Below, piece after piece: positions 1,485-56,047 of a stretch of 64,000 nt of DNA. Within the stretch, counting starts at the first letter, position 1. Every line of letters starts with the position of its first letter. The notes beneath the pieces are model-generated. The model worked only from the letters and a program-made list of their open reading frames with translations, was not told where the DNA came from and searched no databases. This DNA is from an uncultured Candidatus Binatia bacterium (lineage in GTDB: Bacteria; Desulfobacterota; Binatia; Bin18), in the NCBI GenBank assembly GCA_965243855.1, contig CBDEWE010000003.1:3206288-3270287 (forward strand), in the 5' to 3' direction. A program made the translations under genes and the position numbers.

Positions 1485-1512
1485 GCACAGTTTGACAAAC
1501 ATGGCTACAAAA

Positions 1513-1549
1513 AGAGGGATGGGTTCATACCCGTCTCTCTTTTCCTTTT
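1513..1549 (+). terminator. rho-independent terminator-like hairpin after TBDR1
   Basis: AGAGGGATGGGT-tcat-ACCCGTCTCTCT stem followed by TTTTCCTTTT. Confidence 0.45.
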
Positions 1550-1615
1550 GTCTGATTTCTATCGTCCCCTCAAAACGGTAATGGTGTTGTAGCGAGAATC
1601 CGTTATCAAAAAGAG

Positions 1616-4192: not shown

Positions 4193-4280
4193 GCGGAGGA
4201 GCAGGTATTTTTCTGGCAAAAGAAACAGGAGTCTGTCAGGGCAGATGGATTGATTCAAACGCACTGGAGGGAGAGAGAAA

Positions 4281-6881: not shown

Positions 6882-6892
6882 CGGAGAAAAGG

Positions 6893-9469
6893 ATGAAAAC
6901 CATACGGTGGCCCTGCTGGGGAACAGCGGCGCTCTTCATCCTGCTGGGAGCAGTGACGGCCAGACCGCAGGAAGTGGAATCGCCCGCGGAGGTCGTCGGG
7001 CTTGACACCTTGCAGGTTGTGGGGTCGCGTCTGGACAGGCGTTCGGCCCAAGACTCGCCAGTGCCGGTGGACATCATTCAGGGGGAGGACTTACAGACCT
7101 ATGGCATCCGGGACATGGACGCCCTGCTGTCCGCCACCGTCCCGTCCTATAACGTCAACCAGCATCCCATCGGCGGGGACGCCACCTTTGTACGACCGGC
7201 TAATCTGCGCGGAATGCCGCCCGACTCCACACTGGTGCTCATCAACGGCAAACGCCGCCACCGCTCTGCCGTTATTGCCTTCTCCGCGGACGGCAGCAAT
7301 CGCGGGACGCAGGGCGCCGACCTGTCTGTCATCCCGGCCATCGCACTGGAGCGGGTCGAAGTCCTGCGCGATGGGGCCGCGGCCCAGTACGGCTCGGACG
7401 CCATCGCCGGTATCCTGAACTTCAAGCTGAAGGAGGCGTCCGATGGCCTGTCGCTCCACACCAGTTGGGGCCAGACCTACCACGGTGACGGCGACAAGGT
7501 GAATGTCGCCGCCAACCTGGGTCTGCCGCTGACCGACAACGGTTTTGCCAACTTCAGCTTCGAGTTTCTGAACGCCGACGAAACCAGCCGCAGTATACAG
7601 CGCGACGACGCGCGGGGGCTGATCGAAGCCGGCAATATGCATGTGCGCCGACCCGCGGCCCAGATCTGGGGGGCGCCCGAAATCCAGTTCGACTACAAGT
7701 TCTTCGGCAACCTCGGCCTGGACCTGGAGGCGCTCGACGCCCAGCTGTACGCCTTTGGCAACTACGCCGAGCGTAAGGTGGAGGGCGGCTTCTTTTTCCG
7801 TAACCCCAACACGCGCGGCGGGATATTCAGGGGCGACCCGCTCGGAGACGGCACGCCCACCGTCCGGGTGGCCGACCTGTCCGGCACTGGCCTCGGCTGT
7901 CCCGCCGTGCCTGCCAACCCGGCGGCCGACTACACCGGCGTGAATCTGCCCGAGCACTGCTTCCTCTTCAACGAGCGCTTTCCCGGCGGTTTCACACCTC
8001 GTTTTGGCGGCTACCTCCAGGACTGGAGCATCGCCTTTGGCCTGCGCGGGGAATTGGAAGGCGCATACGGCTTGCTGAACGGTTGGTCATACGACGCCAG
8101 CGCCAGCTTCGGCTACAACAGTATTGATTTCTTCATCCACAACACCATCAACCCGCAGCTGGCCGCCATGCGCACCGCTATTCCCACGAAATACCGACCC
8201 GGTGGAAACGCGCAGTTTGAGCGGACGTTCAACCTGGATATTGCCAGACCCCTGGATATCGGCCTCTTCCACTCTCCACTGAACGTGGCCTTCGGATTTG
8301 AGTATCACATGGAGGAGTTCGAACAGAAAGTTGGGGAAGCGCAGTCCTGGTTCATCGATGAAAACCTGAGAAATCAGGGTTTTACCATTGGCTCCAACGG
8401 GTTTTCGGGCTACCCGCCGCAGTCGGCCGGCGTGTTCGAACGCAACAACTATGCGCTGTATCTGGACCTGGAAGCTGAAGTCATACAGTCCCTCAGCCTC
8501 GGCCTGGCCGGGCGATATGAAAACTTCGACAGTGCCATAGGAGAGTCGCTGAACGGCAAGGGGTCGGTCCGCTGGCAACTGCTGGACGCTCTGGCCCTGC
8601 GCGGTTCGGTCGGTTCGGGCTTCCGCGCCCCAACACCGGGACAGGCGAACATCCGGAAAATCAACTCGCAGTTTACCACCGCAGGCCTAGTCGACCAAGG
8701 CATTTTCCCCTCGCATCACCCGGTCTCGGCCTTCTTCGGAGGCAGGCCGCTGGAGTCGGAAAAATCGGTCAACTATTCCGTCGGCAGCGTGTTCAACTCG
8801 GGTGACTTCAGTCTGACCGTCGACTATTATCGGATCAAAATTCAGGATCGCATCGGACTGACGCAGGATTTCAGAGTCCCGGACGAGCAGCGGGCGGCCT
8901 TCAACCGCCTCGCTCCCGACGCGAGTACCCTCACCTCGGTGCGCTACTTCACCAATGCATTTGACACGACCGCGCAAGGGGTCGATATCGTGGCGACCTA
9001 TCCGCTGGCAACGCGGGTCGGTGACACCATGTTGACCTTTGCCGGCAACTGGAACCGGCTGAGGCTCGACCGCTTCGACCCGCACGTCATCAATACCAAG
9101 CAGGTGCATCAGATAGAGGATGGCTTGCCGCAATTCCGGTTTTCGCTGACCGCGGATCACACCTACGGGCCGTGGCGCTTTCTGACCCGCGTGTATTTCT
9201 ACGACGAATTTTTTGAAGCCCACGCCAACACCGAAACGCGTTTCCTGACCGCCGGGGAGCGGTGGCTGATGGATGTCGAAGCCTCGTACACCCTGCTGAC
9301 GCTGCCCTTCACCCAGGCAGTGATTCTTGCAGTAGGCGCGGAAAACGTGTTCGACACCTACCCGCGCAGAAATCCGTACGCGCGCGATACGGGCGCGAAA
9401 TACCCGGAATCCTCACCCTACGGCTTTGGCGGCGGCTTCTACTACGTACGGGCTGGCTTTGAGTTTTAA
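6893..9469 (+). CDS. TonB-dependent receptor (858 aa), paralog
   Basis: Same architecture (LDTLQVVGSR, plug motif, ...YYVRAGFEF end); stop overlaps stop of convergent gene. Confidence 0.85.
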   Translation: MKTIRWPCWGTAALFILLGAVTARPQEVESPAEVVGLDTLQVVGSRLDRRSAQDSPVPVDIIQGEDLQTYGIRDMDALLSATVPSYNVNQHPIGGDATFVRPANLRGMPPDSTLVLINGKRRHRSAVIAFSADGSNRGTQGADLSVIPAIALERVEVLRDGAAAQYGSDAIAGILNFKLKEASDGLSLHTSWGQTYHGDGDKVNVAANLGLPLTDNGFANFSFEFLNADETSRSIQRDDARGLIEAGNMHVRRPAAQIWGAPEIQFDYKFFGNLGLDLEALDAQLYAFGNYAERKVEGGFFFRNPNTRGGIFRGDPLGDGTPTVRVADLSGTGLGCPAVPANPAADYTGVNLPEHCFLFNERFPGGFTPRFGGYLQDWSIAFGLRGELEGAYGLLNGWSYDASASFGYNSIDFFIHNTINPQLAAMRTAIPTKYRPGGNAQFERTFNLDIARPLDIGLFHSPLNVAFGFEYHMEEFEQKVGEAQSWFIDENLRNQGFTIGSNGFSGYPPQSAGVFERNNYALYLDLEAEVIQSLSLGLAGRYENFDSAIGESLNGKGSVRWQLLDALALRGSVGSGFRAPTPGQANIRKINSQFTTAGLVDQGIFPSHHPVSAFFGGRPLESEKSVNYSVGSVFNSGDFSLTVDYYRIKIQDRIGLTQDFRVPDEQRAAFNRLAPDASTLTSVRYFTNAFDTTAQGVDIVATYPLATRVGDTMLTFAGNWNRLRLDRFDPHVINTKQVHQIEDGLPQFRFSLTADHTYGPWRFLTRVYFYDEFFEAHANTETRFLTAGERWLMDVEASYTLLTLPFTQAVILAVGAENVFDTYPRRNPYARDTGAKYPESSPYGFGGGFYYVRAGFEF

Positions 9470-10512
9470 CCTGACCGACGGGTCGGCTGCGGATCAGGCC
9501 GGGGAGTTTTCTCCGGAAAAAGGGCGTAGCCGGCGCGGGCCAGGACGATCAGACCGACCGAGTTGTAGACGGCCTCGCGTGCGCGTTTGAGAAGCATGAG
9601 CGTCAGACCGGCGCTCTCCTCAATACCGAGCAGACGGCAAAGGAAGACTCCACCCGCTTCACGCACCCCCAACGCGCCCGGGATGATCAACGCCGCGGCT
9701 GTGACGGGTTGAATCATGGTTTCAATAATGAGGGCATCCATCCAACTGACCGGTGCGCCGATCAGAACCAAAAACACATAGACTTCCACCGCCCCAACCG
9801 CCCAGCCCAGAAAATGATACAGGCTGGCCGCAATGAAATCCTTGGCGTCTCCGTCATACAAATGAAAGAGATGCGTATCGATGTGCTTGGCCCGTTCCTG
9901 CCAGTATGCCAGGCGGCTCCAGCCGGGAAATCGACGCCGTAGCCAGCCGACGCATTTTTCAACAAGACCCTGCTGCTGCCAGCGCACAATAACCATCACA
10001 AACCCGTACGCCATGACAAAAACGGCACCGAATATCCACCAGGCATGGTAGCCGATATCCAGGCGATACAGAAAAAACGGCAGGCCCAGCACGATAAAAG
10101 CAACCTGAGAGACGGTCAGGGCCGTCTTGGCAGCGACAACCGAGGCCGTACCAACATCGGAGGTCACGCCGTGTTGTCGCAGGAGATAGACCTTGACGGC
10201 CTCGCCACCGACATTCGCCGTTGGGGTCAGATTATTGATGGCCTCCCCAGCCAGTCGGGTGAGCGAAAGCTGAAGCAGGGAGAGCTGCCTGGCGGCCACC
10301 GAGCCGCCCATGGTATAGCCCCAGCCCTTGGCGTCAAACAGCGCCACAAAGCTCTGCGGGATCAAGATCAGGGGGGCGAGCCAGCCAATGTGGTAGAGAT
10401 GCTGGGCGACCTCAGCAATACCGACCTTCCAGAAAAGAATCCCCAGCAAACTGAGGCCGAGCAGAGCGGCGCCAAGCTGGAGGACCCGGCTCTTTTTCTG
10501 CGCGGCGGTCAT
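9466..10512 (-). CDS. lysylphosphatidylglycerol synthase TM-region-like / flippase-like membrane protein
   Basis: 348 aa, multiple TM helices, N-terminal MTAAQKKSRVLQLGAALLGLSLLGILFWKVG typical of the UPF0104/LPG-synthase TM family. Confidence 0.6.
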   Translation of the reverse strand: MTAAQKKSRVLQLGAALLGLSLLGILFWKVGIAEVAQHLYHIGWLAPLILIPQSFVALFDAKGWGYTMGGSVAARQLSLLQLSLTRLAGEAINNLTPTANVGGEAVKVYLLRQHGVTSDVGTASVVAAKTALTVSQVAFIVLGLPFFLYRLDIGYHAWWIFGAVFVMAYGFVMVIVRWQQQGLVEKCVGWLRRRFPGWSRLAYWQERAKHIDTHLFHLYDGDAKDFIAASLYHFLGWAVGAVEVYVFLVLIGAPVSWMDALIIETMIQPVTAAALIIPGALGVREAGGVFLCRLLGIEESAGLTLMLLKRAREAVYNSVGLIVLARAGYALFPEKTPRPDPQPTRRSG

Positions 10513-10535
10513 ACCTGGATTTCTCTAGGGAGCAA

Positions 10536-10587
10536 AAGAGTAAACGTGTCAACAGCTTTGTATCTATTGAAAGACACGTTTACTCTT
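10536..10587. repeat. palindromic element copy 1 (15-bp arms AAGAGTAAACGTGTC / GACACGTTTACTCTT, 22-bp spacer)
   Basis: Perfect inverted repeat 24 bp upstream of start of the 9466..10512 gene; same element recurs at 29109..29162 and 31398..31451. Confidence 0.8.
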
Positions 10588-10657
10588 TGCGGACGGGGGA
10601 AGGGCGGTACGGGCTGCAAGCAGTCGCTCTCTTGTCCGGGTGCGTGTCTTGGGTCTG

Positions 10658-12544: not shown

Positions 12545-12678
12545 GCCCCGAGAGTAGCGTATGAACGGATGGACGGCTAGGGTTGGGGCCTTGAGCTATT
12601 TAGGACCCAACAGTGGCGTGTGATACACATTCCCAGGAGCCTGCGCTCGCCAGACGTGCGGTGGCCGCCGGGACGGGG

Positions 12679-12749
12679 CAACCCACCCCGCCGCTACGCG
12701 GCACCCCTCCCGAGAGGGGAGCTTATCTTATCTCCCTTGGAGAGGGGAG
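12679..12749. repeat. REP-like GC-rich hairpin cluster (CCCCTCC-cgaga-GGGGAG; TCTCCC-ttgg-AGAGGGGA)
   Basis: Shares ACCCACCCCG...CCCCTCCGAGAGGGGAGCTT..TTATC..CCCTTGGGAGGG core with element at 24732..24815. Confidence 0.6.
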
Positions 12750-15229: not shown

Positions 15230-16111
15230 CAACCCCCTCCGCTCCCATTCCATGGCCACCACCCGGCCCAACCCCGACTCCGTAATATATAAGGTCCTCG
15301 AATCGACACCGCCAAAGGCGATATTCGTGACCGCTCTGTCCTCACTCGGAATCCGGTCGACCTGCTGCCCGTGCGGATCAAAGACAATAATGCCCCCTCC
15401 CAGCACACCACAGACCAGAACATAGCCTGCTTCATCCAGACAAAAGCCATCGGGATAATGGCCGGTCGGCAGTTGACAGAATGGTCGGCGCTGGTCGAGT
15501 TCACCTGGGGCAAGAGCGGGAAAGGCACACAGGCTGGCGGCAAAGGTTTCCGCTACGAGCAGGGTTTTACCGTCCGGGGTGAGGCCGATGCCGTTTGGAT
15601 GTTGAAGATTGGTAGCGACACGCCGAATCCAGGTCCCATCCGGACTGGCGTAGTAGACGCTGCCCTGGCGCCGCGTTGGTGCATCCATTGGTTCAGGCCG
15701 CGTGGGATCGCGCTGGATCGGATCGGTAAAGTAGAAATTCCCTTCAGCATCAAACACCAAATCGTTTGGTGCGCTGAGTTGCACGCCGTCACATGAGGTG
15801 TATAAGCGTTCGACCTTACCCTCGGCGTCAATCCGCTCAAGGCGTCCGGTCTCGTAATCCGGAGCCGGTCCAACGGGCAGCCCCTTGCGCCAGCGAAAGC
15901 CGCCGTTATTCGTGACGTATAGGGCTCCGTCCGGCCCTCGGGCGGCCCCGTTCGGACCACCACCCGGAGTGACGAAGGTGGAGAGTGTTCCGTCAGGCGC
16001 AATTTTCCGAACGCGGCCCCCACGGATTTCCACACAATACACGCTGCCGTCCGGGTCACAGACCGGACCTTCCGGGAATGCCAAGCCGGTTGCAATGATG
16101 GTGTGACTCAT
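15218..16111 (-). CDS. SMP-30/gluconolactonase/LRE family protein
   Basis: 297 aa; N-terminal TGLAFPEGPVCDPDGSVYCVEIRGG typical SGL start. Confidence 0.8.
   Translation of the reverse strand: MSHTIIATGLAFPEGPVCDPDGSVYCVEIRGGRVRKIAPDGTLSTFVTPGGGPNGAARGPDGALYVTNNGGFRWRKGLPVGPAPDYETGRLERIDAEGKVERLYTSCDGVQLSAPNDLVFDAEGNFYFTDPIQRDPTRPEPMDAPTRRQGSVYYASPDGTWIRRVATNLQHPNGIGLTPDGKTLLVAETFAASLCAFPALAPGELDQRRPFCQLPTGHYPDGFCLDEAGYVLVCGVLGGGIIVFDPHGQQVDRIPSEDRAVTNIAFGGVDSRTLYITESGLGRVVAMEWERRGLDLL
16047..16092. repeat. 46-bp perfect direct repeat, copy A (inside 5' coding end of SGL gene)
   Basis: CCGTCCGGGTCACAGACCGGACCTTCCGGGAATGCCAAGCCGGTTG identical to 17847..17892, exactly 1800 bp away. Confidence 0.9.
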
Positions 16112-16706: not shown

Positions 16707-17795
16707 TTATGTATGAATCTCCTTTGTCGTAATGGTACTCCCGGAGCTCCCCCGGACCAAGCCTGGAACAGCCGCAGAAAAACGACCAGCCGTTCCACCC
16801 GCGACAACAATAAGAATACTCTCCGGTGCGGGAAACTTCGGATAGAGCGTGTCATCAGTCGGCGGTTCGGTCTGGGCGTTGACGCCGGCCAACATACTCA
16901 CTCCAGCGCCCTCTCCGCCGTTGACCCCAGGCCGCAGTTCACGCAGCGGGCGACGGATGTGTTCAAATAAAAATTGACGGAGATCATTTTTAGACCATCC
17001 ATCCTGGGCAAAGGTCTTGGCATGCTCCGGTCCGACAATCAGCGCCGTATCCGAGAACACCGGAAAATTCTTGTGATTCCAGACCGAGGCCATAGTCCAG
17101 CCAAGCGAGAGGGCTAACTGCTCTGCACTGCGACTGGCATGGTCATTGATCTGAAGCGGGGAGTGACCACCAAACAGGGTGACGGTATTCTGTTCCGGAC
17201 GAAAACCTTTCTCGACGTGCAGCGGCTCCCACGGACTCTCCTCCTCGGCCTCGCCAATACAGAACGTAAATTGGGCTGGATGGCCCAGGGTTGCCTTGCA
17301 AATCTCTTGGGGCTTTGCGCCGCCAATGTTGAGAATGATCAGGCGCAACGCACGCCCGATGGTGGCATTCGCCCGAAATCCATGGCCCAGGGCATTATGC
17401 CCGCAATTCACCCCAATGGTATGGCGTATGGGACCGTTAATAATCGTCAGTGGGGTTGCCGAGAATGTGGTGACATTAATAGCGTGGGCCGCAAACTGTT
17501 CTTCACACAGGGCTTCCACCGCGGCAACGACAACCGGAAAATACGACGCCTGACACCCCGCCATCACCGCATTAATCGCAACTTTTTCAAGACTGGCCGG
17601 TCCATAGTTGGGTCCCACCGTCCCCAAGAGCTCTTGTGGGTCGCGGTCCACTGTGGCGAGCAGCGCCATAACACGCTCTGCGGTTGGCGGAACAACCGGC
17701 AGCCCATCGGTGAGCCCACTTGAAAAGAGGGCTTCAAAAGGGTCGTTCTCCTGAATATCGATGGGTTGTGAATGGAATGCGGCGGCGTCCGCCAT
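16707..17795 (-). CDS. hypothetical protein (362 aa), first gene of the selenoprotein operon
   Basis: Long ORF with strong RBS GGAGGGGAG; no family recognised by eye. Confidence 0.6.
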   Translation of the reverse strand: MADAAAFHSQPIDIQENDPFEALFSSGLTDGLPVVPPTAERVMALLATVDRDPQELLGTVGPNYGPASLEKVAINAVMAGCQASYFPVVVAAVEALCEEQFAAHAINVTTFSATPLTIINGPIRHTIGVNCGHNALGHGFRANATIGRALRLIILNIGGAKPQEICKATLGHPAQFTFCIGEAEEESPWEPLHVEKGFRPEQNTVTLFGGHSPLQINDHASRSAEQLALSLGWTMASVWNHKNFPVFSDTALIVGPEHAKTFAQDGWSKNDLRQFLFEHIRRPLRELRPGVNGGEGAGVSMLAGVNAQTEPPTDDTLYPKFPAPESILIVVAGGTAGRFSAAVPGLVRGSSGSTITTKEIHT

Positions 17796-17846: not shown

Positions 17847-17892
17847 CCGTCCGGGTCACAGACCGGACCTTCCGGGAATGCCAAGCCGGTTG
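17847..17892. repeat. 46-bp perfect direct repeat, copy B (5' leader of the 16707..17795 operon)
   Basis: Identical to 16047..16092; in the SGL reading frame it encodes TGLAFPEGPVCDPDG followed by a stop. Confidence 0.9.
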
Positions 17893-17968
17893 GCAATAAC
17901 AGCGCAACTGAAGCAGAGTGCATGGCAATCAAGAAGTCAGCGCAATGCAGACTGAATCGGAGATAAAA

Positions 17969-17985
17969 TAAACATTCAGAATGTT
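17969..17985. promoter_or_regulatory. 17-bp perfect palindrome AAACATTCAGAATGTTT in AT-rich divergent promoter region
   Basis: Lies in the ~200-bp AT-rich island (17940..18140) between the minus operon and the cytochrome gene; TTGACA at ~18040. Confidence 0.4.
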
Positions 17986-18184
17986 TCTAGCCTTTATATA
18001 CATATAACTGTCTGTATTTAATTATGAAATGAAATATACTTGACACCCCCTAAATTAGGTGTTTATGAGTATTTCGTATTCATTATTCGTTAAAGCGACT
18101 TTCAGAAAATCCCTAATGGCGATCCACGATCACATGTGGATTACGGGGGCAGAACTCTCAGAAATATAGACAGATTCCTTATCC

Positions 18185-19620
18185 ATGCTCCGCCTCTTCC
18201 AGTCTCTTATTATCCTGCAACTGGCTCTCCTCTTCGCTCTGCCCGTAGGAAGCTTTGCACAAACCCCACCTGGGGAGCGCTCCGCCATGAGCGATCTCCA
18301 GATGAGCCAAGAAGATATTGCCAACGAGCGCGTCTCGCCCTATACGTTGCGCCGCAAGGGTGGCCTGATCTTCTCAACCCCGTTTACCAAGCTTGATGGG
18401 TTCGGGCACGCACCCTTTAGCGCGCACGAGCCTGATTTTCTTGAAACACGTCCCACTCTTCAGGGAAACGGGGCTTTTTTACGCGTCAACGGGCTCGACG
18501 CTCAGACCTGCATGGAATGTCACTCGGTCCTGAGCAATGCGGTTGTGCCTTTCCGGTTTGGTGTCGGTGGGGTTGGATCAGGCAGTTCGAATGTGATGTT
18601 TAAGCCGACATGGATTGACCCAACGACCGGCGGCAAAGAAAATTTCAACGGTCGGTTCATTAACCCTCCCTTTTTATTCGGCTCGGGTGGAGTGGAGCTG
18701 TTGGGAAAAGAAATGACCCTGGATTTGCAGCAGCTCAGAGCGCAGGCGCAACAAAGCCCCGGAACACGGGTCTCCCTAGTTTCCAAAGGGGTCTCTTCGG
18801 CAGCATATCCTGCCAACAGGACGGCACGTGCGATACCTCACAGGTCGAAGGGGTGAATACCGATCTGGTGGTTCGCCCCTTTGGCCGCAAAGGTGAGTTC
18901 GCCACCGTCCGTGCATTCGATGTGGAAGCAATGGAGTTCCACTTTGGCATGGAGCCCGTGGAACTGGTTGGGGACGGGGTGGACAGGGATGGCGATGGCG
19001 TGATCAACGAGGTCACTATCGGCCAGATATCCGCCTTACATATTTTTAATACGACCCTCACGCCGCCGATTATGCACCTCAGCCGTGAAGCCCAAGACGG
19101 ACAGGAGCTGTTTGCACACATCGGCTGTGCGGACTGTCATATCCCGTCCCTGACAACCAACAGTCCGATGCTGACCTATAGTTTTCCCGAAGTGCCGACA
19201 GACCCGACCGCCAACGTCTTCTACCGGGTCGATCTGAGAGACTATCCCACGTTTTTTGAGGAGGCGGCGCAGGGGGGCCTCGTGGTCCCGCTGTTCGCCG
19301 ACCTCAAACGGCATGACATGGGGTCGGCGCTGGCCGAATCATTCGGAGAAGAACTGGCCGCCCAGTTCACCACCGCCCGGCTGTGGGGCGTGGCCGATAC
19401 CGCCCCCTACCTCCACGACGGACGAGCGCTGACCCTCACCGAGGCGATTACGCTCCACGGCGGGGAGGCGCAAGCGGCCCGCGATGCGTTTGTCGATACG
19501 CTGGACACTCAGGAAAAGGAGACCCTCTTAACCTTTCTCCGCTCGCTCAGGACCCCTCACGCAGACGACGTGGCCCCTGATCTTCGGTCGGAGAGTAACG
19601 GAAGAGACTGGGAACATTAG
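18185..19620 (+). pseudogene. di-haem cytochrome c peroxidase-like protein (two CxxCH), interrupted by a frameshift near 18750-18765
   Basis: ORF1 18185..18856 (signal peptide, CMECH) and ORF2 18853..19620 (GCADCH) are in different frames; ORF2 frame reads through from 18664; shift maps near a CCCC run at 18757-18760. Confidence 0.55.
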
Positions 19621-19711
19621 AGCAAAGAACGATGCGGTGTAGCGCGGCTCTCTCTTCCCCTTTAGGAGTGCGGGCTGGAAGCCCGCAGGCGACCATCCTG
19701 GCCGCCCTCCC
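19621..19711 (+). repeat. ~90-nt 3'-UTR repeat element, copy A (hairpins GCGGGC-tggaa-GCCCGC, GGCGACCA..TGGCCGCC)
   Basis: About 90% identical to reverse complement of 22381..22469; starts immediately after stop of the cytochrome gene. Confidence 0.75.
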
Positions 19712-19889
19712 AGGAGGAGAGCCGCCCACCTCCCCTCCCAGGCCGTTTGGAGCAAGCCCCTGTCCTTCCCGACGAGAGCGGACTGGTACGGCTACAATTT
19801 ATCGTGAAACGCTCCAGCAGAATCTCCCCTCCAGGCGCGCTTCTCGGTATCCTCTCGGACACGGCTATCAATCTTATGGGTCGGCCTGC

Positions 19890-20444
19890 TCAGTCGAGCG
19901 GTTTTTCTTTAAACACATCGTCCGGACTATACTGCACCTGAAACGCCTGAAGCGCCTGATTGAAGGACGGGTCTTCTTCCGTATCGAGCAGCGCGTCCGC
20001 CGCGGGCGGATCGAGCCGGGCCACGGCCGCCCGCCAGTGCTCCAGTTGCGACAGAGACAGGGGAACGGACACGGTGTAGTGCAGTTCGGTATCCTCACTG
20101 AGCAGGATAACCGTCAGCTTCTCCCGTCGGACGAGCTTCCGCAGAATGGCGACGTCGCTCGCCTGTCTCGGGTTGAGATAAAACACGCCTCCCTTGCTCC
20201 CCCCAAACGTCGGGTGCAGTTGGTAGCCGATGGCCACCACCCATATCCCCTTTGGGCTCTGCCACGTACACAGGCTCAGGCTGAGCGGCAGGGGCGCGTC
20301 AATAAACCAGTCCAGGTCTTCGACCCGGCTGACAACGGCCAGCTCCTGTGTACCCTCACGGTCAATAAACCGGACGGAGTACAGGGGTTCTTCCATTAAA
20401 AGCAGCCAGCTTTCTCGGTTAATCACCACACCGGTCGGTTGCAT
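19890..20444 (-). CDS. hypothetical protein (~184 aa)
   Basis: Protein-like C-terminal 184 aa from MQPTGVVINRESW...; ORF extends upstream to 20657 but that part looks non-coding. Confidence 0.45.
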   Translation of the reverse strand: MQPTGVVINRESWLLLMEEPLYSVRFIDREGTQELAVVSRVEDLDWFIDAPLPLSLSLCTWQSPKGIWVVAIGYQLHPTFGGSKGGVFYLNPRQASDVAILRKLVRREKLTVILLSEDTELHYTVSVPLSLSQLEHWRAAVARLDPPAADALLDTEEDPSFNQALQAFQVQYSPDDVFKEKPLD

Positions 20445-20598
20445 TGAGGATGCTCCTCTCCTTACGCGCTTGACCCACAGGCACGCATCTATCATACATG
20501 GCACTCGCATGGCAGGTTCGACGCCGGAACGCCCAGTGGCCACAGCGGGGCGTTCGGTGTAGGGAGCGTAGACACCGGTCATCATACAAGGAGGGACC

Positions 20599-21885
20599 AT
20601 GGCGAGGCCGGTCAGGTATAAGATCGTTGGACTGCTGTTCTCCGGAACCATCATCAACTACATCGACCGGGTGAATATCTCTGTGGCCGCGCCGGTTATC
20701 ATGGCCGACTCCGGCTGGAGCAAGAGTGAGTTCGGGATGGTCTTTTCCGCCTTCCTGGTTGGCTACGCCGTGCTCCAGTTGCCAGGCGGCCTGGTGGCCG
20801 ACCGCTGGAGCGCACGGAAAGTGTTGGCCCTCGCCTTTTGTGGCTTCTCGCTTTTCACAGCCCTGACCCCGCCGGCCATTGCCGCCTTTTGGCTGCTGCT
20901 CAGCGCGCGTTTTCTGGTCGGCATGTTTGAGTCCGTGACTATTCCGGCGCTCACCTCTGTCAACGCTCGGTGGATTCCGCGGGCCGAGTTTGGCCGCGCG
21001 CAGACCCTGAGCGTGTCCGGCGTGACGGTCGGCCAGATGATTGCCTACCCGCTCACCACCTGGATTATTCTCCACTTCTCCTGGCAGCTCGTCTTCTATT
21101 TTAACGCCCTGCTCGGCTTTGTCTGGGCGGCGCTGTGGCTGTGGTCTTCCACGGACACGCCCGGTGAGCATCCGAAGATTGATGCAGCGGAACGCGCTTA
21201 TATTGAATCAAACCTGTCCCCCCGTCCGGCCGTTCCGCTGCCGTTGTGGACCGTGTTTTCCAGCGCGTCGCTGCTGACCGTGACCCTGGCCTTTATGTGT
21301 TATGCCTACGTGCTGTGGATGTTTCTGTTCTGGTTTCCGACCTATTTGGTCGAGGCGCGTGGCATGTCTCTGGGGGTCATGGGCACGGTCGGCATTTTTA
21401 TGCACGGCGCGTCGTTCCTGGGTGTTATCGGGGCCGGGATGCTGTCAGACTGGCTGCTGCGCAACGGCTGGAGTGCGCAGTTCGCCCGCGTGCGCTTTGG
21501 TGCCTTCGGCCTCACCCTGGCCCTGCCCTGTCTGGTGCTGGCGGCTCAGACCGCCTCGCCGCTGATCTGTACCGTTTTTCTGGTTCTTTTTTACGGGCTG
21601 TTCAGTATGGGCATCGGGGTGTTTACCACGGTTGCCCTGGAGTTTAATCCGCACCAGGCCGGCGCTATCTTCGGCATGATGAATACACTCGGGACCTTTG
21701 CTGGGGTTCTGGGTCCCTGGTCCGCCGGACAGATGATTGAGTACAGCGGAGGAGATTGGACTATACCGCTGTTTGTCGCGACCGGGGTGGGAGCGGTCAG
21801 TGCCCTTATCCTATTTGTGGTCAAGATCAGGAAGATCGAGATAGAGGACGTTGCCTTGGCGGAGGCAGCGGAAAGCGGTTCGTGA
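20599..21885 (+). CDS. MFS transporter (anion:cation symporter-like)
   Basis: 428 aa, 12 predicted TM segments, N-terminal GTIINYIDRVNISVAAPVI... and LPGGLVADRWSARKV MFS signatures. Confidence 0.85.
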   Translation: MARPVRYKIVGLLFSGTIINYIDRVNISVAAPVIMADSGWSKSEFGMVFSAFLVGYAVLQLPGGLVADRWSARKVLALAFCGFSLFTALTPPAIAAFWLLLSARFLVGMFESVTIPALTSVNARWIPRAEFGRAQTLSVSGVTVGQMIAYPLTTWIILHFSWQLVFYFNALLGFVWAALWLWSSTDTPGEHPKIDAAERAYIESNLSPRPAVPLPLWTVFSSASLLTVTLAFMCYAYVLWMFLFWFPTYLVEARGMSLGVMGTVGIFMHGASFLGVIGAGMLSDWLLRNGWSAQFARVRFGAFGLTLALPCLVLAAQTASPLICTVFLVLFYGLFSMGIGVFTTVALEFNPHQAGAIFGMMNTLGTFAGVLGPWSAGQMIEYSGGDWTIPLFVATGVGAVSALILFVVKIRKIEIEDVALAEAAESGS

Positions 21886-21923
21886 GTATAGTTAAGGAGA
21901 ACAGTGACAGAGAGGAGGACCCT

Positions 21924-22223
21924 ATGGCAGACCGACAGAAACTCTCGGATACGGACATTCAGGCCAGGCTGGGCAGTATGCCGGGCTGGAGTGTGGTCGA
22001 CGGGAAGTTGCACCGGGAGTATAAGTTCCAGGACTTTGTCCACGCCTTTGGTTTTATGGCCAGTGCGGCCCTGGTAGCGGAATCCATGAATCACCATCCC
22101 GAATGGTTCAACGTCTACAGCACGGTAAACGTTGACCTGGCCACCCATGACGCCGGGGGCATCACCGAGCTGGACTTTACTCTGGCCGACAAGATGGAAG
22201 AACTCGCCAGCGCAGGCGGTTGA
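21924..22223 (+). CDS. 4a-hydroxytetrahydrobiopterin (pterin-4a-carbinolamine) dehydratase
   Basis: 99 aa from ATG with RBS GAGGAGGA; ...REYKFQDFVHAFGFMASAALVAESMNHHPEWFNVYSTVNVDLATHDAGGIT PCD/DCoH signature. Confidence 0.85.
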   Translation: MADRQKLSDTDIQARLGSMPGWSVVDGKLHREYKFQDFVHAFGFMASAALVAESMNHHPEWFNVYSTVNVDLATHDAGGITELDFTLADKMEELASAGG

Positions 22224-22276
22224 AAGCTGATTACCGTTTCCTCTCCCCTGGCGGGGCGACGGGCGGCCCAAGGGCC

Positions 22277-22302
22277 GGGCAACCACAGGGGGTTGCCCCT
22301 AC
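22277..22302. repeat. 26-bp hairpin GGGCAACC-acagggg-GTTGCCCCTAC, copy 1
   Basis: Identical 26-mer recurs at 56022..56047; both lie between convergent gene ends. Confidence 0.8.
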
Positions 22303-22380
22303 GATACACATTCCCTCTCCCCTGGCGGGCTGAGGGCCTGACAGTTTGGCAGAGACAGGGAATCCGGGGGGCAGGAAACA

Positions 22381-22469
22381 GGGAGGGCGGCCATACTGGC
22401 CGCCATGCGGGCTTCCAGCCCGCACTCCTAAAGGAGGAGAGAGGCGCGCTACACAGCAGCGTGATTTGC
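22381..22469 (-). repeat. ~90-nt 3'-UTR repeat element, copy B (inverted relative to copy A)
   Basis: Reverse complement aligns to 19621..19711; lies ~55 nt downstream of the CaiB-family gene stop in sense orientation. Confidence 0.75.
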
Positions 22470-22524
22470 TCTAGGGTGAGGGGGTTCTCAACGGGGAACA
22501 GCTCTCGGCTGGCTTGCTCCCGAG

Positions 22525-23721
22525 TCAGATAACGCCCGCTTGTTCGAGCTTTTGCAGCTTTTCTGTGGAGAGGCCCAGCAGACCCTGGTAAACGTCTCCG
22601 TTGTGCTGACCGAGCAGGGGGGCCGGGGAGACTTCGACCGGGGAGTCGTCGAGTTGGACCGCGCAGCCGGGCATGGTGATGGTGCCGCGGGTTGGATGTT
22701 CGACGGTGGCGACCATGCCGCGTTCACGCAGCTGCGGGTGGGTGAAAATATCGTGCGAGTCAAAAACCGCTCCACACGGCACACCAGCCTTTCCAAATCG
22801 CTCCATGACCTCGAACTTGGTGTACCGTGTGGTCCAGGCGCAAATAATGTCATACACCTCGTCAAAGCGAGTGTTGCGCTCGGACGTGGCGGTATAGCGC
22901 GGATCGCCGATCAAATCTTCGCGCTCAATCGTGCGTAGCAAACTCTCCCACATCCGCGGCGTCGTGGACATGAGATAGACGTAGTCATTGGGTCCGCCCG
23001 GCGCGCAGGGATAGGTGTCTGTGGGGGCGGCATGGCTGAGGCGGTTACCGGTGCGCTGCACCACAGCATCGGCCTGGAGATGGTGGCGCATGGGCACACG
23101 CACATAATTGACTACCGCATCCTGCATGGACACTTCCACGTGCTGCCCCTTGCCCGTTTTGCCCCGTTGCAACAGGGCCGCCAGAATGCCGACGGCGCAG
23201 TGGATACCCGTACCGGTATCGCCGATAGTCGGGCCGGGTTTGAGCGGCGGCGAGTCGGGCAGGCCGGTAATGCTCAGGGCTCCGCCGGTTGACAGGGCAA
23301 TCGAGTTGAAACTCTTATACTCGCTCCACGGCCCGGATGTGCCAAAGCCCTTGATGGTGGCATAGATCAGCCGCGGGTCAAGCTGCTGCAAGTCCGCATA
23401 GCCGAGGCCCAGCCGTTCCATGGTGCCCGGAGAGAAATTCTCCAACACGACATCGACCTGCGGGATCAGGGAGCGGAAGAGATCACAGCCCTGCTCGGTC
23501 TTGAGATTGAGGGTAATGCTGCGTTTATTGGCGTTCAGCAGAATAAAGAAATGCGAATCGAGCCCCGGCTCGTTGGTCAGAAAGTTCCGTCCCGACTCGC
23601 CGGTGCGGGGTGGTTCGACCTTAATCACATCCGCACCAAGAAAGGCCAAGAGCTCCGTACACGACGGACCGGCCTCAAAATGCGACAAATCGAGAATACG
23701 CACATGATCGAGAGCGAGCAT
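22525..23721 (-). CDS. CoA transferase family III (CaiB/BaiF) protein
   Basis: 398 aa; MLALDHVRILDLSHFEAGPSCTELLAFLGADVIKVEPP family III N-terminal signature. Confidence 0.85.
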   Translation of the reverse strand: MLALDHVRILDLSHFEAGPSCTELLAFLGADVIKVEPPRTGESGRNFLTNEPGLDSHFFILLNANKRSITLNLKTEQGCDLFRSLIPQVDVVLENFSPGTMERLGLGYADLQQLDPRLIYATIKGFGTSGPWSEYKSFNSIALSTGGALSITGLPDSPPLKPGPTIGDTGTGIHCAVGILAALLQRGKTGKGQHVEVSMQDAVVNYVRVPMRHHLQADAVVQRTGNRLSHAAPTDTYPCAPGGPNDYVYLMSTTPRMWESLLRTIEREDLIGDPRYTATSERNTRFDEVYDIICAWTTRYTKFEVMERFGKAGVPCGAVFDSHDIFTHPQLRERGMVATVEHPTRGTITMPGCAVQLDDSPVEVSPAPLLGQHNGDVYQGLLGLSTEKLQKLEQAGVI

Positions 23722-24731: not shown

Positions 24732-24815
24732 AAACCCACCCCGGCCACCCCTCCGAGGAGGGGAGCTTTTTTATCCCCTCTTGGGAGGGCTGCCGCGTAG
24801 CGGCGGGGTGGGTTT
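24732..24815. repeat. nested palindromic REP-like element with hairpin-plus-T-tract terminator
   Basis: Outer arms AAACCCACCCCG / CGGGGTGGGTTT; inner CCCCTCCgaggaGGGGAG + TTTTTTAT + CCCCTCttggGAGGG. Confidence 0.6.
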
Positions 24816-24851
24816 CCCAGCCCCTAACCCCCAATCCCTAACCCCCAACCC

Positions 24852-25847
24852 CTAATACCCCCCACGTTTGTCCACAACATTATCCATGGGCTCGCCGCGC
24901 AGATACTGACCCAGAATCGGTTGGAACAGCGCCACCGCGTGCTCCCAATAGTGAGAGCGAATACCGGAATAGTGCGGGGTGAGAATCACATTCGGCAGGT
25001 AAAATAACTCGCTGTCCGCCTCCGGTGGCTCGGGGTCGGTAACGTCCAACCCGGCACCGCCGAGACGGTCTTCTTTGAGGGCCTGGATTAAGGCCGCTTC
25101 CTGAATAATCGCCCCGCGTCCGACGTTCAGAATAAAAGCTCCCGGCTTCATCAAGCGCAGTTCGGGCTCTCCGATCAGACCCCGGGTTTCCGGCGTCAGC
25201 GGGGCGGCCACCACCACATAGTCCGACTGTGCCAAGAGCTGGGGCAGGCCGTTTGGCCCGAGCAATTCATCAACACAGGCCGGTTTGTCGCCACCCCGCC
25301 GCTTGTTGGCAACTACCCGCATGCCGAGCGCCTGACAGCGTTCGGCCACGGCCAGGCCGATACTGCCCAGCCCGATAATGCCGACGGTCCGACCGTGCAG
25401 CTCGGCAATCAGGGAAAACCGGCTGATCATTTCCTGGCGCGCCCACTTGCCTTCCCCCTGGAGGCGGTACGCCTCGTGCAGGCGGCGCGCAAACATGAGC
25501 ATCATGCCCAGCACGTGCTCGGCAATCGGAATGCCGTAGAGGCCGCGCGAGTTGGTGACAATGATGTCGCTCTCGACCAGCTCTGGAAATAAGACGTGCG
25601 TGGCTCCGGCCGAGGTGAGGTGGAGCCATTTGAGCTGGGTGGCGGTCGCCAGGTCCTTTTTGCTGAATCGGACAGCACACAGCACCTCGGTATCGGCCAG
25701 TTCGGCCAGCCGCCGGTCCGGGTCCTGGATCAGATTGATGTGGGCCTGCGGAAATGCGTCTTGCAGTTGCCGGACGAGCGCCAGGGGAAAATCCGGCCAG
25801 CCGGCCAGCCCGGCCGCACCGGCAAACGAAATACTCACCTTGGTCAT
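24852..25847 (-). CDS. D-isomer-specific 2-hydroxyacid dehydrogenase family protein
   Basis: NAD-binding GXGXXG motif VGIIGLGSIGLAVAERCQALGMRVV; start at ATG with RBS AAGAGGA (ORF open to 25970). Confidence 0.8.
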   Translation of the reverse strand: MTKVSISFAGAAGLAGWPDFPLALVRQLQDAFPQAHINLIQDPDRRLAELADTEVLCAVRFSKKDLATATQLKWLHLTSAGATHVLFPELVESDIIVTNSRGLYGIPIAEHVLGMMLMFARRLHEAYRLQGEGKWARQEMISRFSLIAELHGRTVGIIGLGSIGLAVAERCQALGMRVVANKRRGGDKPACVDELLGPNGLPQLLAQSDYVVVAAPLTPETRGLIGEPELRLMKPGAFILNVGRGAIIQEAALIQALKEDRLGGAGLDVTDPEPPEADSELFYLPNVILTPHYSGIRSHYWEHAVALFQPILGQYLRGEPMDNVVDKRGGY

Positions 25848-26529: not shown

Positions 26530-28932
26530 CTAATCCAGCACCTTCTCTTCTTTGAGCCGCGCAATCTCTTCCGGCGCATAGCCCAGCACGTCCCGCATGA
26601 TCTGGTCCGTATGCTGGCCGAGCAGTGGCGCGGGCGCGCGAACGCCGTTGGACGATTCGGCCAGTAACCAGGGGATACCCATATGCAGCCGGGGGCCGAC
26701 TTCCGGATGCGGCAGGCGCGCAAACGCTCCGCGCGCCTCCAACTGCTCGTCCTCCGCCAGGTCAGACGCACTCAGCGCCGGAAAGGCGGCCACACCCGCC
26801 TCCTGGAGCATCTGCGTGACTGCCCAGCGGTCGCGCTGGCTGGTCCACGCGGTCAGCAGTTTTTCCAGCTCGTCTTCGTTTGCTTTCCGGTCGGAAGCGG
26901 TATGAAAGCGCGAGTCACTCGCCAGTTGGGGCTCGCCCATAGCCTGACACAGGGCCTGCCATTCTTCGTCCGAGCCACACGCGATCGAGACCCAGGCGTC
27001 TTCTCCCGCGCAACGAAAACAGTTATGCGGAGCCATGACGGGGTCGTGGTTGCCGTCGCGCTCGGGCTGGGTGCCGTTCATGACGTAGTCCATCCAGCCC
27101 TCGGACACCAGGGCCGCCACCGCGTCAAACAGCGACACATCAATATACTGGCCCTGGCCAGTGCGTTTCCGGGCGACCAGTGCGGCACAGACTGCCGCGG
27201 CAGCGTGAATGCCGCTGTTCGGGTCGCCGTACGAAATCCCGACCTCTTGTGGCGAGCCGCCCTGATAGCCGCTCAGGGAAGATAAACCGCTGACCGGAGC
27301 CATGGCCGGGCCATAGCCCATGTACTTTTTCCGCGGGCCGGAATGGCCGAAGCCCGAGATCGAAGCCACAATGATATCCGGCTTGATCTGCTTGAGCTCA
27401 TCGTAGCTGAGCCCCAGATTGTCCATCACGCCGGTCGCAAAATTATCCACCACTACATCGCTCTGCCTGATGAGCTCTTTGATAATCTCCATCCCCTTTG
27501 GTTTGGCGACGTTGAGGAGCAGACTCTTCTTGCCCATGCTCCACTCGTTAAAAATACCGGAGCGATTCACCCCGGCTTCCATACCCTTCGGGTAGATCGG
27601 CAGCCGACGGGTAATATCCACCCGGGCGTTGGATTCGATCTTAATCACCTCGGCCCCCAGGTGGGCCAGATGCATGGTGCCAAACGGCCCGGCCCAGACC
27701 CAGGTAAAATCCGTCACCCGCACGCCTGCCAGGGGCAGACGGGAGTCGGGGGTTGGGGATTGGGGGTTGGAGGGACGTGACGGGCTTGGCAGTTCGGCGA
27801 AGACTTCGGCAGTATGCTCTCCCAGTTGTGGGGCGGGACGGCGAACCTGCCACCACGGCTCGCGCAGTCGGTAGGGTGCACCGAGCTGGGTCAGCTTGCC
27901 CGCTTTGGGATGTTCCACATCCACGAAAAACCCGCGCGCGCGGAGATGCTCGTCTTCGGCGAGCTGGGCCATGGTCTGCACCGGAGCAAAACAGATCCTC
28001 CGCTCCTGGCCCATCCGAAACAGCTCGTGCACCTTCTGCTGCTGGAACCACTCATCCAGATACATTTTGAGCACGTCCTGGTTCTTGGCCCGGTCTATCC
28101 CCCCTTGAAAAATCTCCCAGCTCCCCCACTCGGGATTCCCCATGAGGTCAACCAAGCGTTCCCACTGGTCCTCTTCCGCAACGACTAGAAAGATCAGGCC
28201 GTCCTGACACTCATAAATACCCCAGGGGTACAACAGCCGTTTGCCCAGGCGCGAGGCGACCCGCTCGCTATACGTGTAATGGACGAAGCTCTGTTCCATG
28301 AAAGAGGACACATAGGCTTGAGTGCTAAGATCAATATGTTCTCCACGCCCGGTCTCCAGCGCCCGATAATAGGCACCAAGCGTTGCGACCGTGGCGGCCA
28401 GCCCGCCTTGGAATCCCGTCTGCTGGCCATACGCCTTGAGGGGCGGCAGGTCCGGATAGTCCGACGCCCCAGGGCTCAACCAGGCCCAGCCGCCGGCATT
28501 GGCGACGGTGATGTCGTACGCCTTGTAGTCTTTATATGGCCCAGTCAGACCAAACGGCGTAATCGAACACATCACCAGCCGTGGGTTGAGTGCCCGAAAG
28601 GCCGGATAATCGATACCCAGTTCCGCCATCCGTGGTGGCGCATAATCATGGACCAGGATATCGGCCCACTGCACGAGTTGAGCGAGGCGGTCTTGCTCCT
28701 GCGCCACGTCAAGCGTGACACTGCGCTTATTGGTATTGAGGGATAAGAAGAGGCCGCTCTGCTCGGGGTCTGCTTTACCACCAGGAAAAGGCCCGCGCCA
28801 ACGGGACTGGTCGCCGCCCGGTTCTTCGGCTTTGACGACATTCGCGCCAAGGTCAGCCATGAGTTTTGTGGCGTAGGCTGCCGAAGCAAGATGGCCGAGT
28901 TCCAGCACTTTGACATCTTCGAGACCCTGCAT
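26530..28932 (-). CDS. tandem-fused CoA transferase family III protein (two CaiB/BaiF domains, 800 aa)
   Basis: Domain 1 MQGLEDVKVLELGHLASAAYATKLMADLGANVVK...; Pro/Ser linker; domain 2 LAGVRVTDFTWVWAGPFGTMHLAHLGAEVIKIES... Confidence 0.8.
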   Translation of the reverse strand: MQGLEDVKVLELGHLASAAYATKLMADLGANVVKAEEPGGDQSRWRGPFPGGKADPEQSGLFLSLNTNKRSVTLDVAQEQDRLAQLVQWADILVHDYAPPRMAELGIDYPAFRALNPRLVMCSITPFGLTGPYKDYKAYDITVANAGGWAWLSPGASDYPDLPPLKAYGQQTGFQGGLAATVATLGAYYRALETGRGEHIDLSTQAYVSSFMEQSFVHYTYSERVASRLGKRLLYPWGIYECQDGLIFLVVAEEDQWERLVDLMGNPEWGSWEIFQGGIDRAKNQDVLKMYLDEWFQQQKVHELFRMGQERRICFAPVQTMAQLAEDEHLRARGFFVDVEHPKAGKLTQLGAPYRLREPWWQVRRPAPQLGEHTAEVFAELPSPSRPSNPQSPTPDSRLPLAGVRVTDFTWVWAGPFGTMHLAHLGAEVIKIESNARVDITRRLPIYPKGMEAGVNRSGIFNEWSMGKKSLLLNVAKPKGMEIIKELIRQSDVVVDNFATGVMDNLGLSYDELKQIKPDIIVASISGFGHSGPRKKYMGYGPAMAPVSGLSSLSGYQGGSPQEVGISYGDPNSGIHAAAAVCAALVARKRTGQGQYIDVSLFDAVAALVSEGWMDYVMNGTQPERDGNHDPVMAPHNCFRCAGEDAWVSIACGSDEEWQALCQAMGEPQLASDSRFHTASDRKANEDELEKLLTAWTSQRDRWAVTQMLQEAGVAAFPALSASDLAEDEQLEARGAFARLPHPEVGPRLHMGIPWLLAESSNGVRAPAPLLGQHTDQIMRDVLGYAPEEIARLKEEKVLD

Positions 28933-31397: not shown

Positions 31398-31451
31398 AAA
31401 GAGTAAACGTGTCGACATCTGCATGTCTATTGGAGGACACGTTTACTCTTT
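31398..31451. repeat. palindromic element copy 3 (AAAGAGTAAACGTGTC / GACACGTTTACTCTTT, 22-bp spacer)
   Basis: Divergent promoter region between amidohydrolase and dienelactone hydrolase genes; spacer GACATCTGCATGTCTATTGGAG ~64% identical to copy 1 spacer. Confidence 0.8.
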
Positions 31452-53592: not shown

Positions 53593-53822
53593 TCACCGTG
53601 GGCAATGGAAAGTACAGTATTTTCAGGAGGATCACGCGCGTCACGCCAGAGCGGAGCCGATCACTGGCCCGTCTGGGAATCATCGACATCTGCCCAAACT
53701 TCCAGTACAGTGCGCTCTAAGACTCGGACAGGTGATGCAAAAAGTAACCCACCCCGGCAGTCCTCGCATATCTGGCGAGCGCGAGTTCCTGGGAATGTGC
53801 ATCACACGTAAATGAGGTGTGT

Positions 53823-55982: not shown

Positions 55983-56021
55983 GATGGATTTTCCCTCACC
56001 GACAGGGGAGCGGGCAACCAC

Positions 56022-56047
56022 AGGGGGTTGCCCCTACTCTATGCTGG
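56022..56047. repeat. 26-bp hairpin GGGCAACC-acagggg-GTTGCCCCTAC, copy 2
   Basis: Identical to 22277..22302; overlaps stop of the convergent amidohydrolase gene. Confidence 0.8.

Follow-up and report, generated by a model that had tools for sequence, protein, structure and literature searches.

Two related intergenic repeats of an uncultured Binatia bacterium, probable members of a TA-flanked, MITE-like family with an embedded REP doublet

The window, a 64-kb stretch of DNA from an uncultured Candidatus Binatia bacterium, contains two related repeats, copy A and copy B, that are very probably members of a dispersed, old, non-autonomous and non-coding family of mobile DNA, whose elements are MITE-like palindromes flanked by TA and enclosing a REP doublet. 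Repeats of this sort are commonplace in bacterial genomes, and the element is not a dedicated RNA gene. The first-pass annotation of the pair had left three options, a 3'-UTR-derived sRNA, an mRNA stabiliser or terminator module, and a small mobile element. TIRs, TA flanks, the REP doublet, dispersal, insertion and a link to RAYT genes all point to the last of these, and a dedicated sRNA or terminator finds no support. An apparent "structured 3'-UTR element" would thus be explained as a mobile repeat, which should guard against sRNA- or riboswitch-like annotation in Binatia. The analysis also puts on record a REP/RAYT system and a TA-flanked MITE family, with doublets nested in MITE arms, in an uncultured phylum-level lineage; the surprise is modest. 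For the clade, the repeats should serve as markers by which insertions, deletions and rearrangements in intergenic DNA can be traced.

Structure of the element and of its two copies

The repeats and their gene neighbourhoods comprise the following features:

19618..19816, + strand: complete MITE-like element, consisting of TA, a 195-bp body (19620-19814) and CA, a degenerate TA; copy A is its left 94 nt
19620..19643, + strand: left TIR GAGCAAAGAACGATGCGGTGTAGC, preceded by TA at 19618-19619, as defined by a 10-element alignment
19791..19814, + strand: right TIR GCTACAATTTATCGTGAAACGCTC, followed by CA at 19815-19816, where most other copies have TA
19663..19714, + strand: REP doublet (REPIN), TAGGAGT-GCGGGC-TGGAA-GCCCGC-A followed by GGCGACC-ATCCT-GGCCGCC-CTCCCAGG, with an outer GGAG/CTCC pair
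22381..22473, - strand: copy B, a shortened element with TA, left TIR (22448-22471), linker and REP doublet (22381-22430); the right arm is missing
22277..22302, - strand: second, unrelated REP type, GTAGGGGCAACC-CCCTGT-GGTTGCCC, in the intergenic region of copy B
Neighbours of copy A, convergent: DHOR gene (+) and conserved hypothetical gene 19890-20657 (-)
Neighbours of copy B, convergent: pterin-4a-carbinolamine dehydratase gene (+, ends at 22223) and CaiB-type gene (-, ends at 22525)

Positions 19618-19711 (+) and the reverse complement of 22381-22473 are 86% identical over 95 columns, and blastn of each copy against the 64-kb window gave E 1e-15. The repeat reported in the first-pass annotation is therefore real; the identity was given there as ~90%, and a 38-nt core of the alignment reaches 95%. 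No third copy of the 95-nt unit was found in the window by blastn. Copy A had been delimited as 19621..19711. Its start lies 3 nt earlier, at a TAG, and its right boundary falls inside the element, which runs on to 19816.

This TAG (19618-19620) closes ORF 18853-19620, a match to the Pfam family DHOR ("di-haem oxidoreductase, putative peroxidase"), in agreement with the earlier placement of copy A at the stop codon of a peroxidase-like gene. Likewise, copy B does lie behind the CaiB-family gene, which encodes a CoA-transferase of family III (22525-23721, - strand), at 51 nt past the stop instead of 55. Since both copies are located in convergent intergenic regions, each is on the sense strand of one neighbour and on the antisense strand of the other, so the sense orientation behind genes noted earlier is correct as geometry and weak as an argument.

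The DHOR gene has some peculiarities of its own. It is represented by two overlapping ORFs (18185-18856 and 18853-19620), of which the one for the N-terminal half has no Pfam match; the split suggests a frameshift or a sequencing error. An AT-rich stretch (GC 0.39 around 17900-18200) precedes the gene, which is missing altogether in a close relative (L020, see below) and may have been recently gained or be decaying.

For comparison, the pattern TAGGAGTGCGGGCNNNNNGCCCGC was scanned across one genome per species, yielding at least 116 loci, labelled L001-L116. An alignment of ten full elements with their flanks revealed sharp common ends, with TA followed by GAGCAAATCACGATGCNGTGTAGC on the left and GCTACAANTTATCGTGAAACGCTC followed by TA on the right, and imperfect TIRs of ~24-27 bp; the left end GAGCaaaTCACGATgcgGTGTAGC and the right end GAGCgttTCACGATaagtTGTAGC are inverted repeats of one another. 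In the next layer, GCGGCTCTCTC in the left arm pairs with GGAGAGCCGC in the right arm. The GUGUAGCGCG-CUCUCUC segment that had been singled out in the first-pass annotation is a part of the left TIR together with this inner repeat. The full unit consists of three nested layers, the TIRs with TA flanks, usually C-TA...TA-G, the inner inverted repeat and the REP doublet at the apex. End-to-end similarity to the element of copy A is 72-85% in L067, L104, L082, L069, L083, L075, L089, L108 and L088. The 199-nt element folds into one long nested hairpin (RNA, -82.3 kcal/mol, z -2.1); it contains no conserved ORF and is non-coding.

Of the 14 left-type ends, 13 have a C-TA flank; on the right, TA, mostly as C-TA, flanks 14 of the 17 ends. 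The resulting pattern, C-TA[G...C]TA-G, is the one expected of a TA-duplicating transposase inserting into CTAG. The target of copy A would have been the TA in the TAG stop of the DHOR gene; because the first base of the element is G, insertion at TA regenerates TAG, and the rebuilt stop would explain why copy A "starts" precisely at the stop codon. In L063, L072, L047 and L101, different inner palindromes are found inside the same TIRs, which indicates that the TIR arms are an independent module.

Two related loci, L020 (OZ242288.1) and L033, are syntenic with the window, with 97-99% amino-acid identity of the CaiB-type, MFS and dehydratase gene products. Both carry copy B at the orthologous site behind the CaiB-type gene, 92-94% identical to that of the window and extending about 14-30 nt further into the element; the right arm is absent in all three. 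Copy B is very probably an older, shortened copy that has been inherited vertically. Copy A, on the other hand, is absent from the orthologous junction of the DHOR gene and the convergent gene in L033, where 13 nt separate the two stops as opposed to 269 nt in the window, so that copy A represents an insertion. At this empty site the left junction fits and the right junction has diverged, which makes a TA duplication unreadable from this pair. No clean pair of empty and filled sites with a TA duplication was found among the fetched loci; the other orthologous pairs are all filled, and retrieval was biased toward filled sites because the loci were fetched by the pattern itself. The TA could also be part of the element termini and not a target duplication.

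The orthologous copies B differ in the loop of hairpin 1 (22411-22415), which reads TGGAA in the window and TTCCA in both L020 and L033, an inversion in situ. The loop of copy A is TGGAA as well, and gene conversion between the two copies of the window is possible.

The REP doublet and its association with RAYT genes

The 50-nt core of the family doublet reads TAGGAGT-GCGGGC-loop-GCCCGC-A followed by GGCGGCC-loop-GGCCGCC-CTCCCAGG; the two hairpins of copy A are at 19670-19686 and 19688-19706. Both hairpins of the first-pass annotation were recovered, GCGGGC-TGGAA-GCCCGC in copy A and copy B, and GGCGGCCA-GTA-TGGCCGCC perfectly in copy B and with a single A.C mismatch in copy A. The conserved heads are inverted with respect to each other, GGAGTGCGG... 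versus ...CCGCCCTCC (GGAG(T)GCGG / CCGC(C)CTCC, that is, GGAGTGC... facing ...GCCCTCC). Over 34 distinct doublet copies, 98.9% of cells are paired and one pair covaries, the basal pair of hairpin 2 (GC 23, AU 5, CG 3), the invariance of hairpin 1 and the outer helix being partly due to ascertainment, as the retrieval pattern fixed them and the copy filter required CTCC. The loops flip between copies (TTCCA/TGGAA, AGGAT/ATCCT), which is the behaviour of a DNA palindrome and not of a sequence-specific RNA loop. The ends of the doublet have no unpaired GTAG tag like that of the GTAG super-family (PMC3733652), the head being T-TAGGAG-T or GGGAG(T/C); the only places with GTAG are the TIR (as GTGTAGC) and the second REP type (22277-22302).

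A phmmer screen of all ORFs from the loci and the window identified three RAYT-like ORFs, none of them in the 64-kb window. One of the three, ORF 6582-7187 of L057 (Binatia, OZ252051.1), matches NCBIfam NF047646 "REP-associated tyrosine transposase" with 99.1 bits (cut-off 80) and Pfam Y1_Tnp with 38.6 bits, and has the doublet on both sides (6471-6550 and 7222-7275). An acidobacterial RAYT in L025, 39% identical to the RAYT of L057, is located between two ~175-nt REPINs that are built from GGAGTGCGGGCGTCCCGCCCGCA and share the head GGAGTGCGGGC with those of Binatia. When the L057 RAYT was used as the query against metagenomes, 80 homologous loci were obtained, 66 of which had both flanks; a repeat common to the two flanks was present in 58 of these 66. 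The nearest metagenomic homologues carry GGGAG[C/G]GCGGGCG...GCGCTCCCAGG, and the REP head GGAGTGCGGGC / CCTGGGAG[CT]GC is common to related RAYTs in Binatia and Acidobacteriota. By its sequence context in these relatives, as distinct from the genome of the window, the doublet qualifies as a RAYT-associated REP/REPIN under the operational definition (PMC3116915; PMC3733652). It would serve as the substrate of a RAYT (HUH/Y1) enzyme that recognises the hairpins in single-stranded DNA.

The doublet resembles the described REP/REPIN and RAYT systems (Nunvar 2010; Bertels & Rainey 2011, PMC3116915; PMC3733652) in its short GC-rich palindromes arranged as inverted pairs, in having many scattered copies that lie mainly outside genes, close to 3' ends, and provide a terminal TAG as a stop, in flanking a RAYT gene (L057, L025) and in its long vertical persistence. 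In contrast to them, its head is TAGGAG/GGGAG(T/C)GC and not the classical GTAG, and the two stems of the doublet differ (GCGGGC versus GGCGGCC) and are separated by 1-2 nt. A parallel to the nesting comes from Anabaena variabilis, in which Di Nocera et al. 2013 (PMC3733652) described REP dimers, of the GTAG-15 type, within long palindromes. The same study reported REP termini that supply the TAG stops of flanking ORFs, a concentration of REPs between convergent or unidirectional ORFs near 3' ends, and tyrosine-transposase genes flanked by long TIRs. The Binatia element is a mosaic of this type.

The second REP type of the window is contained in an insert of ~105 nt (22230-22335) bounded by direct repeats CCCGCCAGGGGAGAGG, which is present in the window and in L020 and absent from L033. 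Another copy of this type is found at about 56011-56037. In L032, a different RAYT-type gene (671-1360) has related GTAGGGGCGACC...GGTCGCCCCTAC palindromes around it and even inside it.

Distribution of the family and its likely mode of spread

In Binatia, MAGs and complete chromosomes alike carry the pattern many times over, with at least 8-9 loci per genome; among the matches listed, it was also found in Thermoanaerobaculia, other Acidobacteriota and Roseofilum cyanobacteria. The first-pass annotation had proposed looking for copies beyond the two, and blastn against the fetched loci shows that the 95-nt unit recurs full-length, with 82-94% identity, at no fewer than 17 sites in Binatia. Non-allelic copies were identified in OZ242288.1 (L020, L075, L104 and L110) and in CBDBDK01 (L011, L024, L088 and L089). 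Further sites have the 3' 50-nt doublet alone or the doublet with the right arm. Half-elements are always broken at the hairpin doublet. Copies within one genome are 80-90% identical and orthologous copies of different species 88-96%; with within-genome identity at just 80-90%, the family is old and shows no sign of recent movement. According to a crude gene caller based on codon usage, ~62 of 74 copies are intergenic. A TIR scan of viral contigs produced one chance match, in an apparent phage coding sequence, and a plasmid collection had no match.

Outside Binatia, the head with the hairpin TAGGAGTGCGGGC-N5-GCCCGC recurs in unrelated phyla (e.g. L013/L077/L092 and L031) where loop and partner differ by lineage. 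Thermoanaerobaculia have the loop GTCTC and, as second hairpin, CGGGCGTCCCGCCCG; the unit often follows directly on a coding sequence, with an apparent TAG stop. Roseofilum has the loop ATCTT and, in L031, also 24-nt tandem arrays of the hairpin.

Judging by the TIR/TA architecture, a CTAG/TA-targeting DDE transposase of the IS630/Tc1-mariner type, working by cut and paste, may have spread the whole element. IS630-family elements duplicate TA (PMC2170065), and a preference of IS630 for CTAG is mentioned in a passage of the same article that cites Tenzen & Ohtsubo 1991; TA termini are also characteristic of the bacterial MITEs Correia, ERIC and RUP (PMC2229807, Table 1). Neither the window nor ~0.9 Mb of related loci (at least 116 loci) yielded a transposase with matching TIRs, and TIR pairs 0.5-3.5 kb apart, scanned for an autonomous IS, contained no transposase. 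Two large TIR pairs were considered as autonomous IS and rejected because they enclose a VapBC-like gene pair (L032) and an enoyl-CoA hydratase-like gene (L024). With no RAYT gene in the window either, neither a DDE transposase nor a RAYT can be tied to this genome.

Alternatively, RAYT itself could have spread the whole 199-bp palindrome as an extended REPIN, with no DDE transposase involved. This is fairly unlikely in our estimation, for all that a DDE-type IS with these TIRs did not turn up in the window or the ~0.9 Mb of loci. At the apex of the nested palindrome lies the RAYT substrate; both TIR families of moderate abundance and RAYT-like genes between long TIRs have been documented (PMC3733652), and strand-specific transposition of single strands could account for the orientation bias described below. 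However, the RAYT gene of L057 is flanked by bare doublets that lack the TIR arms, the occurrence of unrelated inner palindromes within the same TIRs shows the arms behaving as a separate module, and symmetric C-TA flanks are a signature of TA-duplicating DDE transposases (PMC2170065).

Among bacterial MITEs with TA termini, the element is close to Correia/NEMIS of Neisseria, RUP of S. pneumoniae (IS630-Spn1) and ERIC (PMC2229807). It shares with them a size of <200 bp, the non-coding nature, TIRs of ~24 bp, TA at both termini, intergenic location, multiple copies and a transcript that would form a long stem-loop. In contrast to those families, the centre of the Binatia element is a RAYT-type REP doublet, and no cognate IS was found in the loci searched. 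A third point of comparison is provided by the BIMEs of E. coli, which are mosaics of REP with other short motifs. Like BIMEs, the Binatia repeats are modular mosaics of REP hairpins, intergenic, variable in their combinations and present in shortened forms; they differ from BIMEs in sequence and in that their accessory motifs are true TIRs with TA flanks. We found no literature description of such a mosaic in Binatia.

Possible effects at mRNA 3' ends and further repeats of the window

Copies of the family persist mainly at the 3' ends of genes, and if they are transcribed, the very stable hairpins at the mRNA 3' end could be a side-effect. Such an effect of the element is possible. A stronger version holds that the element is a selected RNA module of the 3'-UTR, a stabiliser, an exonuclease barrier or a 3'-derived sRNA, for which a mobile origin would be compatible. 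At 13 of 16 independent sites the gene upstream of the left arm is oriented towards it, and a junction TAG ends an ORF of 100 codons or more at 7 of 14 left ends, with copy A as an additional case, compared to 2 of 20 right ends, but these counts come from a crude, home-made gene caller based on codon usage, involve small numbers and have a post hoc p of about 0.02. Maintenance of copies at orthologous sites across species at 88-96% identity, the very stable fold and the location of most REPs downstream of ORFs, where they are plausibly transcribed (PMC3733652), would agree with selection on RNA. Yet copies A and B both lie between convergent genes; doublet-only and right-arm copies have no clear orientation bias and are found in divergent and upstream contexts, too; loops flip, in one case between orthologous copies; the family is modular, with many shortened copies; and the element has no Rfam family, no T-run and no promoter. 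Taken together, we regard a selected 3'-UTR module as quite unlikely.

The searches behind the last of these points were specific. The Rfam covariance search that had been suggested in the first-pass annotation returned no match at the gathering threshold in the window, and at E up to 1 both elements gave only chance matches far below threshold. A consensus scan detected no promoter in the elements, a TACAAT in the right arm having no -35 partner; neither an IHF site nor an outward promoter was detected in the element, and neither element has a hairpin followed by a T-run on the sense strand.

Symmetric targeting of TA does not predict a left-end bias, so selection or a strand-specific mechanism is hinted at. 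The bias of left ends toward stop codons may thus reflect selection on transcripts, a strand-specific mechanism or small numbers. That the REPIN within its TA-flanked TIR element is kept preferentially with its left arm joined to the sense gene's stop codon, beyond what selfish DNA would do, is a speculative proposition to which we give little credence. If true, the element would either have been exapted in Binatia to act at mRNA 3' ends or be inserted strand-specifically by RAYT. In the same speculative vein, the constant breakage at the REP doublet suggests that RAYT also makes the half-elements.

The GC-rich hairpins directly behind stop codons could also be taken for intrinsic (Rho-independent) terminators common to the two convergent gene pairs. 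This is very improbable because neither hairpin is followed by a T-run, the sole match of a terminator scan within the elements lies opposite to the sense strand of copy B, the total number of scan matches is no higher than in shuffled sequence, and terminators would leave the 45-nt left arm and the TIR architecture unexplained. Finally, the left arms of copies A and B are inverted, facing each other 2856 bp apart, as if they were the ends of a 2.85-kb composite transposon (19618-22473) carrying the hypothetical gene, the MFS transporter and the pterin dehydratase; we consider the chance of this negligible and rejected it, since the gene order is identical in L020 and L033, which have copy B only, and copy A is closed by a right TIR of its own, at a distance of 195 bp.

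Besides the MITE-like family, the window contains other repeats. Four paralogous units, each ~2.6-2.7 kb long and 60-88% identical to one another, follow in tandem at positions 1-10500 and look like an array of large, paralogous genes. The 46-nt sequence CCGTCCGGGTCACAGACCGGACCTTCCGGGAATGCCAAGCCGGTTG forms a direct repeat without mismatches at 16047-16092 and 17847-17892, 1800 nt apart, which brackets the gene at 16707-17795 (-). Two copies of a 54-nt palindrome (10535-10588 and 31398-31451) are 85% identical and have perfect 16-nt arms, AAAGAGTAAACGTGTC...GACACGTTTACTCTTT. More families of intergenic repeats are represented at 12617-12740, 24746-24852, 27742-27773 and 53748-53808. One of these combines CACCCCTCC(C)GAGAGGGGAGC hairpins with a GGGGCAACCCACCCCGCCGCTACGCGGC module and also adjoins a REP doublet in L041; runs of the CCCTAACCCCCAA type occur among them as well.

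Among the related loci, L032 has a two-gene module (3900-5320) between directly repeated partial copies of the element. By eye only, its ORF 4395-4658 looks antitoxin-like and ORF 4655-5062 similar to a PIN/VapC toxin. The orthologous site in L116 contains just an element of 128 nt.
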